A stretch of DNA of 64,000 nt from Verrucomicrobiaceae bacterium (GTDB lineage Bacteria > Verrucomicrobiota > Verrucomicrobiia > Verrucomicrobiales > Akkermansiaceae): contig JBPOGH010000001.1 of assembly GCA_051252135.1 (NCBI GenBank), positions 160,001-224,000 of the forward strand, written 5' to 3'. This document shows positions 37,518-40,710 of this stretch, in pieces. The notes under the pieces are model-generated. The model was not told where the DNA came from and made no database searches. It worked only from the letters and a program-made list of their open reading frames with translations. Position 1 is the first letter of the stretch; each line of letters starts with the position of its first letter. Made by a program: the position numbers and the translations under genes.

Positions 37518-37546
37518 TTGACTCTTTGTGCGGACTTCTCTATTAG
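37518..37546 (+). promoter_or_regulatory. Sigma70-type promoter of the Hcp-like operon (likely leaderless)
   Basis: TTGACT-17 nt-TATTAG, ending 6 nt before the ATG at 37553. Confidence 0.6.
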
Positions 37547-37552
37547 GGGGGA

Positions 37553-38086
37553 ATGAGGGAAATATCGAAATTATCAAAATCTCTGGCCCTGACCGTTCCG
37601 GTGGCTGCTTCGTTGGTTGGGTCGGATTTGGAGGCTGCGGCCTATATTAAATTTGACGGTGTTGATGGGGAGGCGACCTCTCCAGGTGGCGATGGGTTTA
37701 TCAAGATCGAGTATTACAAGATCGAGATTGACCGGAGTGGGCCGAACGGGGCCGCTGCCTTTAAGAATGTTGTGGTGGCTCTTCCCATGGAAAAGGCGTC
37801 GCCCAACCTGATGCTCTCCTGCGCGACCGGTGCGGTTCTTAAGAACGCCACCCTATACGTTACAAGGACGGGGAGCGATGGGACGGAAAACACTTTCCTG
37901 AAGATTGAGTTCACCAAGGTCGTGATCGACAGCTATCGAACCACCGGTGATGGCGGAGACGATCGCCCGGTTGATGAGGTGACACTTGGATACACGGAGG
38001 TTGAATGGACCTACAATGTGCGGGATGCCGGCGGAAAGGTGATTGAGGTCATCAAGACCCCAACGCTTTCCACAGTGCCCAGATAA
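37553..38086 (+). CDS. Hcp (T6SS tube)-like protein with N-terminal signal-peptide-like extension
   Basis: YIKFDGVDGEA, EKASPNLMLSCATG, FLKIEFTKVVIDSY, DRPVDEVTLGYTEVEWTY match Hcp1 family; 28-aa leader ending DLEA-A. Confidence 0.85.
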   Translation: MREISKLSKSLALTVPVAASLVGSDLEAAAYIKFDGVDGEATSPGGDGFIKIEYYKIEIDRSGPNGAAAFKNVVVALPMEKASPNLMLSCATGAVLKNATLYVTRTGSDGTENTFLKIEFTKVVIDSYRTTGDGGDDRPVDEVTLGYTEVEWTYNVRDAGGKVIEVIKTPTLSTVPR

Positions 38087-38119
38087 AATCGGCTGGCCCG
38101 AGTGAACCACGATTGTCCG

Positions 38120-38986
38120 ATGAAACTGCGAAGCTATTTTAAAGCGCTTATCCTGATGGTGGCGATTGTGCCTATACCGTCGGTTCAAGCGGCACAATTC
38201 TACCTGAAATTGGGCGACATCAAGGGGGAAGCCAGGGCTGAGGGGTTTGAGGGGTGGATTAAGGCCGAATCATTGGGTTTCGATGGAATTGTGGCAGGTA
38301 AGGGGGGCGGTGCCATCAGGGTGATGAAGCGAATCGATGCCGCTACACCTCTGATATTGACGGCAATCTCGACCGGAAAATACATTCGGCAGGCCGAGAT
38401 TGTGCTGATCGAAGACGGTAAGGAGGGTGAAGTCCGAAATTTTGCGGTGCTCAAGCTGCGGGATGTGGTGATCGCCGGGGTTTCTCAGGAGGTATTGGAA
38501 AAGGGGGAAGGTCATTTGGAGGAAGTGACCTTGGCGTTTCGCACGATCCTTTTCAGTTATCCTTCAGCCGATGGTGAGGACTCACCGAAAGTGGCTGATC
38601 TTGGTGGAGATTTGGATTCCGATGGGGATGGAATGACTGACGACTACGAAAGATTCCACGGGTTCGATCCTGCCGTGAATGATTCCGGTTTGGATTCAGA
38701 CAAGGATGGCCTTACCAATTATCAGGAATTTAAACTTGGGTTAAACCCCAAGTCGGCACGATCTTTATTTGAAACAAGGGGGCGACCTTCATCGAAGGAT
38801 CCTTCAAAGTTCCGCCTTGAATGGGAAACGAAGCCCGGGACGGTTTACGATGTCTATTTCACGTCGGATCTTGGCGAGCCATTCAAATTCATCGAGCGTA
38901 TCACGGCTGCCGATTTTGATACGGCATGGGAGGTCGGAACCGGTGGTTTAAAAGGGTTCTACCAGGTTCGCTCGGTGTTGGAATGA
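38120..38986 (+). CDS. Secreted Hcp-domain protein with DxDxDG repeats and C-terminal beta domain
   Basis: Signal peptide ending SVQA-A; FYLKLGDIKGEA..GFEGWI, KRIDAATPLI..AISTGKYI, LKLRDVVI, EEVTLAF; DSDGDGMTDDYE, DSDKDGLTNYQE; YDVYFTSDL...FYQV. Confidence 0.85.
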   Translation: MKLRSYFKALILMVAIVPIPSVQAAQFYLKLGDIKGEARAEGFEGWIKAESLGFDGIVAGKGGGAIRVMKRIDAATPLILTAISTGKYIRQAEIVLIEDGKEGEVRNFAVLKLRDVVIAGVSQEVLEKGEGHLEEVTLAFRTILFSYPSADGEDSPKVADLGGDLDSDGDGMTDDYERFHGFDPAVNDSGLDSDKDGLTNYQEFKLGLNPKSARSLFETRGRPSSKDPSKFRLEWETKPGTVYDVYFTSDLGEPFKFIERITAADFDTAWEVGTGGLKGFYQVRSVLE

Positions 38987-40449
38987 CGTCTATCACGTTT
39001 AATGATCTCGATGAGTGGAATCCGGAAGCCTTTCTGGATGACTTGAAAGCGGGGGGGTATTCAATTGAGCTGCTTGGATTAAGCAGCGGGGCGTCGCTGG
39101 AGATTGCGAAGATTCGTCCAAAGAGTCAGGAGCAAGAGGTTCTGAGCCGTTTGTTTTTGGCGGGGGAAGGTGTTTCGGAATCAGAGGTGCGACAAAGTCT
39201 CCCAAGGAGTTATCAATCGATTCGGGAGCTGGGGTTGTTGGTGTCAACCGGAGGAACGGTTGCCTCGAAGCTCAGGATTCGTCCGGTTGATGAGTGTTAT
39301 GTGGGAGAAGATTTCCCGAGGGTTCTGGGTGAACGGGACGACGAAATTTCGACAGAGTTTGTGATGGGGGTGGCTCCCACCACACGGATGTTGCGGCGGC
39401 TGATTCCCAACTTTCCCAGACAGCGGGTGTTGGACTTGTGCTGCGGCGGGGGATGGCTTGCGTTGATGGAGAGGGGGAGTGGTGCGGAGGTCGTAGCGAC
39501 CGATTTGAGTGAACGATGTCTTGAGGTGGCGCGCTTCAATGAACGGCTTGCGGGGGTGGAGGTCGATTGGAGGAGGGGGCCTTGGTTTGACCCTGTGAAC
39601 GGGGAGACCTTTGATCTCATCGTATCGAACCCTCCCTTTGTGCAATCTCCGGGTGGCGGTTCGATGGCGCTGGATACCCCATCGGAGGAGGAGCCACTGG
39701 GAGTGATTTTGGGTCAGATTGGCGATCATCTTAATCCGGGAGGAGTGGGGTGTGTGCTGTTAAACTGGCAGTTTGGAGATGAAGAACATTGGGACGAGAT
39801 ACCCCGGTCACTGATTCCAGGCCAAGGGCTTGAGGTGTTGCTCTTTGAAGTGAAGAGACATGACCCGGCCTCGTATGCCGAACATTGGATTCGACAGGAC
39901 ATCCGCTTCAATTCGTCTGAAAAACGAGCGGCAGAGATTGAACGGTGGGTGGAGTATCTTCGTGCCCGTGGCAGTGTGGGAGTTTCCTCCGGATTTGTCC
40001 TAGTGAGAAAATGTGAAATCGGCCGGGAATGGTTTCTGTCCGAATCACGGGAGCTGGAACAGCTGGGGCCTGATACTGCGGAGGAAATGCGGCGAGTGTT
40101 TGAGAATCAGGCTTGGTTGAAGGAGGGAGATAATGAGGGGGGGATTTTGGACGCGCGATTTGAGGCAATTTGTGGGGTTAGGAAGGAAGTGGTCTCGGTC
40201 CTTAAACCGGAAGGCTGGGAGGTTGAGGTTCTGCGATTAATTAGTCCGGGCCGGATCATGTACGATGGCCATATTGACGAGCCACTTCTCTTTTTGTTGG
40301 AGGAATTAGGGCAAGGCCGAACGGCGCGCAGTGTGCTGAAGTCGCTCGCGAAAATGATCGGAGTCTCGCGTCCCGGGGATTTGGAAGTCGGAGTGAAGAA
40401 TCTGGTGGGAGAATTGGTGGGTCGAGGTCTTTTAAAACCCTCCAGGTAG
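38983..40449 (+). CDS. Class I SAM-dependent methyltransferase (NPPF/HemK-like) with extra N- and C-terminal domains
   Basis: VLDLCCGGG, ATDLS, FDLIVSNPPFV; ATGA overlap with upstream stop. Confidence 0.88.
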   Translation: MTSITFNDLDEWNPEAFLDDLKAGGYSIELLGLSSGASLEIAKIRPKSQEQEVLSRLFLAGEGVSESEVRQSLPRSYQSIRELGLLVSTGGTVASKLRIRPVDECYVGEDFPRVLGERDDEISTEFVMGVAPTTRMLRRLIPNFPRQRVLDLCCGGGWLALMERGSGAEVVATDLSERCLEVARFNERLAGVEVDWRRGPWFDPVNGETFDLIVSNPPFVQSPGGGSMALDTPSEEEPLGVILGQIGDHLNPGGVGCVLLNWQFGDEEHWDEIPRSLIPGQGLEVLLFEVKRHDPASYAEHWIRQDIRFNSSEKRAAEIERWVEYLRARGSVGVSSGFVLVRKCEIGREWFLSESRELEQLGPDTAEEMRRVFENQAWLKEGDNEGGILDARFEAICGVRKEVVSVLKPEGWEVEVLRLISPGRIMYDGHIDEPLLFLLEELGQGRTARSVLKSLAKMIGVSRPGDLEVGVKNLVGELVGRGLLKPSR

Positions 40450-40527: not shown

Positions 40528-40710
40528 ATGAAACACTTTGCCTTCGTTTTTGCCCTCGTTGTTCTTGGATTGAGTTCTTGTGAGCGTCACGACTGGGAGT
40601 CCAAGCCCGGTAAGCCCGGCACGGAGGAGCTTTTCAAGCATGCCCCCAAAGATGACGGGGATCACGCCGAGGGAGAGAAGCACGACGGTGAGAAAAAGGA
40701 GGCTCACTGA
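40528..40710 (+). CDS. Small His/acidic-rich lipoprotein
   Basis: AGGAGG upstream; signal MKHFAFVFALVVLGLSS-C; mature CERHDWESK...HAEGEKHDGEKKEAH. Confidence 0.75.
   Translation: MKHFAFVFALVVLGLSSCERHDWESKPGKPGTEELFKHAPKDDGDHAEGEKHDGEKKEAH

Follow-up and report, generated by a model that had tools for sequence, protein, structure and literature searches.

A verrucomicrobial operon pairing two leader-bearing Hcp-family proteins with a candidate Hcp-directed N-methyltransferase

Hcp is regarded as a hallmark of type VI secretion systems (T6SS), in which its tube is assembled in the cytoplasm. The operon described here, from a Verrucomicrobiaceae bacterium, encodes two Hcp-family proteins with predicted export leaders, HcpA (gene 1) and HcpB (gene 2), followed by a methyltransferase (gene 3). 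It lies in a 64,000-nucleotide stretch of contig JBPOGH010000001.1 (assembly GCA_051252135.1, positions 160,001 to 224,000), which is referred to as the window, and its features are collected in Table 1. Named protein matches put the organism within Verrucomicrobiota, close to Roseibacillus and 'Verrucomicrobiaceae bacterium 227'. The original prediction had placed three co-oriented genes between queD and lemA, with genes 2 and 3 joined by an ATGA; the open reading frames (ORFs) and the overlap (38983-38986) were found as described, and a Pfam scan matched the flanking genes to queD (PTPS) and lemA. The operon holds the two Hcp genes and gene 3, while its flanks vary among related loci of the same makeup (trios). 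An alternative start that would lengthen gene 3, at 38926, was discarded, as relatives start -4 to +18 bases from the gene 2 stop. The promoter that had been proposed stands in part. TTGACT-17-TATTAG is present, and TTGAC recurs 35-40 bases upstream of the gene 1 start in 8 of the 12 trios examined (chance expectation about 1% per 15-base window), but a consensus promoter scan did not call it, the -10 lacking its last T. The transcript predicted from this site would be leaderless or have a very short 5' untranslated region.

Table 1. Features of the operon, numbered by position in the window
Feature	Position	Strand	Basis
Candidate promoter: -35 TTGACT (37518-37523), 17-base spacer, weak -10-like TATTAG (37541-37546)	37518..37546	+	Sequence
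Gene 1 (hcpA), 177 amino acids (aa)	37553..38086	+	PF05638, E 4e-23; PDB 1y12, E 2e-10
HcpA leader, residues 1-28, predicted Sec/signal peptidase I signal, likely cleavage after LEA	37553..37636	+	Heuristic test; conserved start
Leader motif S8-K-S-L-A-L-T-V-P16, candidate methyltransferase recognition site	37574..37600	+	Conservation among HcpA leaders
Gene 2 (hcpB), 288 aa counted from ATG	38120..38986	+	PF05638, E 1.9e-17; PF18884, E 1.6e-6
Pair of acidic repeats of the bacterial TSP3 type (DSDGDG..., DSDKDG...), predicted to bind calcium	38615..38749	+	PF18884; sequence
C-terminal module of HcpB, about 70 aa, candidate sorting/anchoring module	38768..38983	+	Own hidden Markov model (HMM) over ORFs
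Gene 3 (methyltransferase), 488 aa	38983..40449	+	Pfam; AlphaFold model
Gene 3 C-terminal domain, residues 393-486, PqqD-like winged helix resembling RiPP recognition elements	40159..40440	+	Model; weak profile matches

The reading of genes 1 and 2 as Hcp-like was borne out by the Pfam T6SS_HCP profile (PF05638), which scores HcpA (residues 31-154) at 82.5 bits and HcpB (residues 28-147) at 64.2 bits, over a gathering cut-off of 23.5. On TIGR03344 both fall under the cut-off of 58.9 (46.4 and 35.2). The two proteins share 25% identity and are the only Hcp matches in the genome, which is 96.6% complete. The best solved relative of HcpA is Hcp1 of P. aeruginosa (1y12). The GE motif and the ring-contact helix (ASPNLMLSCATG in HcpA, STPNLMMACSSG in 1y12) are retained in the Hcp domains, and in the alignment HcpA lacks the canonical aromatic C-terminal strand motif. 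Ahead of the Hcp motif, basic and hydrophobic leaders ending in A had been noted. Both leaders, of 28 residues in HcpA and 24 in HcpB, pass a home-made signal test (basic n-region, hydrophobic h-region, small residues at -3/-1), one that is passed by 74 of 10,269 internal windows (0.7%) and by 18% of first-Met termini and that fails 7 of 15 likely secreted controls. Among trios, 10 of 12 HcpA leaders pass, and HcpA leaders end in A-x-A-like sites. Since the upstream leader of gene 1 is conserved in relatives, the shorter version of the gene in the database (P0001, 161 aa) was set aside. A twin-arginine signal was dismissed on visual inspection. Export of HcpA and HcpB by Sec, with cleavage of their leaders, is predicted with considerable assurance.

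The original prediction had found no T6SS genes in the window, and the same now applies to the genome for the families searched: VipA, VipB, TssF, VgrG, PAAR and IcmF_C gave no match, in searches that did not extend to ClpV, TssJ and TssL and whose profile controls gave matches in E. coli. Phage_sheath_1, the sole phage or contractile sheath family searched, was likewise without a match. The Hcp pair appears to be independent of a T6SS in its relatives as well, as VipB was found in just 2 of the 23 further genomes with a trio-type locus, where it adjoins a leaderless Hcp of its own, and not in the remaining 21. Among 150 genomes of the family, 24 have an Hcp match; VipB is present in 6 of these, in each case beside a leaderless Hcp, and in the rest the Hcps bear leaders, most often arranged as a free subunit with a tailed copy behind it. 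Pairs of leader-bearing Hcps were likewise seen elsewhere in the phylum, outside this family (8 of 24 newly read loci). Side observations extend the range of Hcp arrangements: signal-peptide Hcp genes at L127, L136 and L034, two of them paired with a tailed copy, on contigs of thaumarchaeal appearance by their sequence features (L034, which bears the label Rhodospirillales, is possibly mis-binned); leaderless Hcps in tandem, two or three at a time, in Verrucomicrobiota (L190, L200, L203); and leaderless Hcps in Planctomycetota (L035-L052).

The neighbourhood survey bore out the expectation that the trio is conserved. The enzyme matched 15 of the 150 family genomes, 11 of them with full-length orthologues, and ten of these stand directly behind an Hcp pair, with one alone. 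The four partial matches, all from one genus, were left out of the count because they are carbamoyltransferase-like fusions; these proteins (L099-L102) are about 1,280 aa long and join a presumably carbamoyltransferase-like region to the methyltransferase fold of gene 3, with a conserved TTPTCLSSYL tail. In a sample of 400 family genomes 13 further leader-type loci were found, and once a duplicate and a locus cut by a contig end are set aside, all 11 are full trios. The trio is thereby known from 23 genomes including this one (22 others of the family), with the enzyme starting -4 to +18 bases from the gene 2 stop in 23 of 23; a sample across the phylum yielded the enzyme in 2 of 400 genomes, both of the same family. 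The solo enzyme (L098:6299-7790) sits in a gene setting where L073 has a full trio, with neighbours that we take to be a homoserine dehydrogenase and a dienelactone-hydrolase-like gene, and the Hcp pair was probably lost there. Just 3' of the operon, the window holds a 60-aa lipoprotein-like ORF (40528-40710; LSSC, His/acidic tail) that was not seen behind other trios.

Gene 3 encodes a protein with a DUF7059-like domain, an MTS domain (class I S-adenosylmethionine-dependent N-methyltransferase) and a DUF7782 domain, with the motifs DLCCGGG and NPPF (N216-P-P-F) and no signal peptide; MethyTransf_Reg and PKMT_2nd gave no Pfam match in it. An AlphaFold model built from an alignment of 102 sequences (pLDDT, the predicted local distance difference test score, 93.6) matches GenN best (Z 27, root-mean-square deviation 3.2 over 307 residues; profile E 3e-37) and then AerE (Z 25 over residues 5-356), both within residues 1-370, with the next structural matches reaching only Z 15. 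The modeled fold is that of a GenN/AerE-like N-methyltransferase. GenN is reported to methylate an aminoglycoside amine (PMC11285071), and AerE a peptide's Asn side chains; AerE requires D-Asn and does not need a leader (PMC9060474). Fold-search matches are taken up by the catalytic domain. In the model the C-terminal domain (residues 393-486) consists of three strands followed by three helices, resembling a recognition element (RRE) of the enzymes for ribosomally synthesized and post-translationally modified peptides (RiPPs). A profile of 20 such domains matched the leader-binding lasso peptide proteins TbiB1 (E 0.23) and TfuB1 (E 0.25) weakly, among 11 matches of which most were designed helical proteins. 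PqqD matched 3 of the 20 domains (best E 3.8e-6) and ScmD 2 of the 20, and a search of short proteins with the profile gave 19 matches, one with PqqD and two with DUF7782, many of them probably fragments.

A candidate target for such a domain is found in the leader of HcpA, where 24 of 24 trio-type HcpA proteins share the consensus S-[KR]-[ST]-L-A-L-x-x-P, with no variation at its S, L, A, L and P positions. The first 12 of these leaders were found without the leader in the query, and the second 12 with a profile that contained it. The motif carries Lys or Arg in 20 of the 24 and occurs once in the genome. Of 20 HcpB leaders, 8 enzyme-less exported Hcp pairs (one start unresolved) and another 12 exported Hcp loci that lack the enzyme, none has the motif. 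In a held-out test on new loci, the enzyme was present at 11 of 11 that have the motif and enough room for it, and at 0 of 12 exported Hcp loci in which the motif is missing. Signal peptides usually drift fast. In HcpB mean identity is indeed lower in the leader (0.21) than in the mature part (0.29), whereas in HcpA it is higher (0.46 versus 0.33), and something therefore probably reads the HcpA leader. A resemblance of L-x-x-P to lasso leader motifs was not used as evidence. A swap of HcpA domains under a fixed leader was considered and is not shown by the trees, which need 3 changes and are compatible with one origin. That the RRE-like tail of gene 3 is the factor that binds the leader is a tentative proposal, and the one most in doubt among the steps suggested below.

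The association of this enzyme family with Hcp extends beyond the trios. A pattern-biased sample of metagenomic Hcp loci was read, comprising 80 among the matches listed (342 kb), and the following counts refer to it. The enzyme family lies at most 3.8 kb from Hcp in 15 of the 80 loci, 12 of them scoring at least 80 bits, and is carried by 11 of the 29 loci of at least 5 kb; for comparison, its copy density in this genome is one per 4.58 Mb. The 15 positives, which include four pairs of near relatives, comprise two exported pairs (one a duplicate), seven T6SS clusters (two checked with Pfam, the others assigned by sequence likeness), four orphan leaderless Hcps and two short contigs, and Hcp is leaderless in 13 of them. 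Hcp is the sole neighbour common to all enzyme settings, and for this reason it is favored as the substrate. The orphans (L123, L158, L166, L180) have no T6SS genes within the stretch examined. A MethyTransf_Reg enzyme is also encoded in three scanned T6SS loci, and in two of these a PKMT winged helix is matched as well. In the soil clusters L105, L130 and L154, two methyltransferases (one of the gene 3 family, one MethyTransf_Reg/PKMT-like) stand beside tssB-tssC-hcp, which suggests that T6SS parts may be methylated there. Dedicated lysine methylation of exported surface proteins is on record for KmtA on AtaA and PKMT on OmpB (PMC11784438), and enzymes of the MethyTransf_Reg/PKMT type methylate such lysines (PMC11784438, PMC8232902). 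A separate observation concerns 62-75 aa peptides of Alphaproteobacteria (L057:4992-5219, L058:5881-6108, L061:5923-6159) that hold only the first and/or a late Hcp strand motif. Their leader is presumably double-glycine-like, and no methyltransferase of the gene 3 family was found nearby.

It is somewhat favored, then, that Hcp itself is the methyl acceptor. The acceptor residue is probably lysine or asparagine, because Lys (10 residues) and Asn (6) are present in mature HcpA, which contains no Gln, and 20 of the 24 motifs include Lys or Arg; the first-strand Lys as a specific acceptor was rejected as non-discriminating (11 of 13 HcpA, 77 of 95 other Hcps). An alternative possibility is that the pair is exported as a ring while the enzyme methylates a small molecule or a ring-bound cargo, the leader motif serving export timing or another factor. 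This would fit GenN as the best structural and profile match, the existence of a solo orthologue and the lack of an invariant acceptor residue in Hcp, and many members of the enzyme family are actinobacterial, with a gene context outside this survey. Yet no biosynthetic or transporter gene is common to the trio flanks, the RRE-like domain is absent from GenN, and Hcp is the only neighbour shared by three different settings. A substrate other than Hcp is consequently considered unlikely, though it is the strongest of the competing explanations.

What the exported proteins build was considered next to the proposal that they form a tube or ring outside the cytoplasm. A search of 1.84 billion representative proteins with an Hcp profile, whose ranking favors multi-domain proteins, gave 149 new proteins among the matches listed (P0139-P0287), and to these the following counts apply. 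Exactly six Hcp domains were found in 59 chains, five in 13 and seven in one. Chains of precisely six Hcp domains in tandem are a large class in their own right and candidate exported rings made of one chain. A planctomycete-type leader or RTX-type repeats are present in 34 of the 59, and Pfam scans of 19 chains found RTX, Ig, cadherin and Planc_extracel domains. These leaders and repeats indicate that the Hcp fold leaves cells by several routes. Hcp hexamers are reported to have a 40 Å lumen (PMC4469607), and chains that stop at six domains fit one ring per chain. It is quite likely that HcpA and HcpB also form hexamers, and the ring part of the earlier proposal gains indirect support from the six-domain chains and from the retained ring-contact helix.

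The part of that proposal that envisaged a long filament or nanotube is weakened by the loop between strands beta2 and beta3, which is 15 residues long in HcpA and 11 in HcpB, as compared to 22-26 in 12 Hcps of T6SS loci (spans of 33 and 29 versus 40-44), which makes it about 8 residues shorter in HcpA and 12 in HcpB. This loop is reported to be necessary for Hcp stacking (PMC4650826). If HcpA polymerized extracellularly to a long tube that HcpB nucleates or caps, this would agree with the two-gene layout seen across the phylum, in which a tailed subunit comes after a free one, with the HcpB loop being the shortest (median 11 versus 23 in T6SS loci), as a terminal ring might have, and with 7 of 13 HcpA proteins whose loops are within 4 residues of the T6SS median. 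Against it stand, besides the loop lengths, the finding of no length-control, spike or sheath gene in the genome and the six-domain chains, whose bulky added domains suggest free-standing rings. A long tube is therefore improbable, slightly more so than a substrate other than Hcp. Because the loops are shortened and loops of HcpA length occur in six-domain chains, a ring or short stack is the likelier assembly.

Short loops also raise the possibility that the exported domains do not oligomerize into rings any more and serve in binding, either as monomers or as HcpA-HcpB heterodimers. HilE, a Salmonella Hcp homologue with a short loop, is reported to be a monomer (PMC10696396), and the HcpB span of 29 is matched by just 4 of the 335 scored domains of six-domain chains. 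The ring-contact helix is retained, however, and the HcpA span of 33 is matched, with 8 of 58 six-domain chains having a median span of at most 33, which leaves this explanation very unlikely. Least probable is that the HcpA leader is of RiPP type rather than a Sec signal, HcpA being modified and then retained or processed in the cytoplasm, or else secreted through a T6SS whose genes lie elsewhere. In its favor are a modest hydrophobic core (best 10-residue mean 2.07, proline included), the unusual conservation of the leader and a genome that, at 96.6% completeness, may lack genes. Against it, most HcpA leaders pass the signal test and have A-x-A-like ends, HcpB combines an ordinary signal with an extracellular tail, and seven T6SS and sheath families were not found here, nor VipB in most other trio-type genomes.

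The tail of HcpB bears on how a ring or short stack would be held. Behind its ordinary signal peptide (residues 1-24) and the Hcp domain with its very short loop, HcpB carries TSP3-type repeats and a C-terminal module. PF18884 is over its cut-off for the first repeat, and the second was read by eye from the sequence; calcium binding is presumed as a family property. The module has no Pfam or NCBIfam match, and an HMM built from it found it in 31 other ORFs of the genome (among 23,976), in 24 of which it lies at most 25 residues from the C-terminus. Lectin, glycosidase, CotH, Ig or TSP3 domains are present in 9 of 15 scanned carriers, and the other 6 are without a Pfam domain. Roughly two dozen large secreted-type proteins of this genome, L210-L224 among them, end in a module of this kind, which fits a candidate verrucomicrobial tag for sorting or anchoring. 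The idea that gene 2 encodes a surface anchor is strengthened by a tail shared with largely secreted proteins, and it is fairly probable that the repeats and the module together tether HcpB at the surface.

Taken together, these observations allow a working model. The gene 3 enzyme would grip the conserved HcpA leader in the cytoplasm and methylate HcpA before export. HcpA and HcpB would then leave by Sec, HcpA would assemble into a six-membered ring or a short stack, and HcpB would tether it at the cell surface. The use of such an assembly would probably be that of a ring displayed at the surface for binding or capture, comparable to the six-Hcp chains that are joined to adhesin-type domains. 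Methylation, leader binding, export and assembly are predicted steps, and the model as a whole has about an even chance of being right, with leader recognition as its weakest step.

Several findings weigh against the model. No candidate acceptor residue is invariant in Hcp. GenN, the closest solved structure, acts on a small molecule and AerE works leader-free (PMC9060474), and the sequence matches of the RRE-like domain are weak (E 0.23-0.25). All trio enzymes form one clade, so the co-occurrence of motif and enzyme counts as one event, possibly a single historical one, and the argument rests on the unusual conservation; in addition, the second leader set came from a profile containing the leader. 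The same RRE-tailed enzyme adjoins leaderless Hcps, which have no motif, and its tail therefore need not bind a leader. The enzyme was not found in the T6SS loci of the family itself, a solo orthologue exists without an Hcp pair, and many exported Hcp pairs lack the enzyme, which is therefore dispensable for the module. Finally, the short-loop homologue HilE is monomeric (PMC10696396).

If the model is true, Hcp matches in Verrucomicrobiota and elsewhere have been misread as T6SS markers, and the ring of the tail tube also serves as a surface module. RiPP logic and general secretion would meet in a signal peptide that in addition guides a modifying enzyme. Hcp would be the first candidate substrate for the uncharacterized DUF7059/DUF7782 methyltransferase family, and modification of T6SS tubes is predicted. 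Three features go beyond the original prediction, namely the invariance of the leader motif, the RRE-like tail of gene 3 and the enzyme's wider link to Hcp. A more sweeping proposal would combine a widespread class of Hcp N-methyltransferases, a leader that is at once a Sec signal and a RiPP-style leader, methylation of unfolded Hcp, a T6SS-independent surface ring or short tube on HcpB and T6SS tubes of soil bacteria that are marked likewise; this combination is speculative and less likely than not. In the literature searched, where other meanings of 'HCP' crowded some of the results, no account was found of Hcps with a signal peptide, methylation of Hcp, the DUF7059/DUF7782 family or chains of six Hcps. 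Each part has a known fold, and the system they make up matches no known kind in that literature.

Comparison with known systems places the proteins in the Hcp family and the system outside the T6SS, the proteusins and the PKMT enzymes. With Hcp/TssD (PF05638; Hcp1, 1y12) it shares a domain over the Pfam cut-off, the GE motif and the ring-contact helix, and it differs in its N-terminal leaders, shortened beta2-beta3 loops, the extracellular tail fused in gene 2 and TIGR03344 scores below the cut-off. Unlike in a T6SS, no sheath, spike, baseplate or membrane-complex family was found among those searched, and the tube subunits carry leaders of 28 and 24 residues; unlike in a phage tail or extracellular contractile injection system, no Phage_sheath_1 sheath gene is in the genome. 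HilE likewise reuses the Hcp fold without a T6SS and has a shortened loop (PMC10696396), but it is a cytoplasmic monomeric regulator without an export signal, partner fusion or methyltransferase. The proteusin N-methyltransferases AerE and PoyE (7rc2-7rc6) have the same two-part fold and NPP-type motif as gene 3, which has an additional RRE-like domain, and neither a proteusin precursor nor a radical-SAM epimerase is in the operon. GenN, the gentamicin 3''-N-methyltransferase (5u18, 5u4t), is the best structural match, yet its alignment stops at about residue 374, before the extra C-terminal domain, and there is no aminoglycoside cluster here. RREs such as PqqD and the lasso B1 proteins TbiB1 (5v1u) and TfuB1 (6jx3) resemble the modeled three strands and three helices of the gene 3 C-terminal domain, with weak profile matches; here that domain forms part of a methyltransferase, and its candidate leader doubles as a predicted export signal and sits on a folded protein of 150 residues, whereas RRE leaders sit on short precursor peptides. 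The outer-membrane protein lysine methyltransferases, PKMT1/2 on OmpB in Rickettsia and KmtA on AtaA in Acinetobacter, offer a likeness in that a dedicated enzyme methylates an exported surface protein (PMC11784438), although gene 3 belongs to another family.

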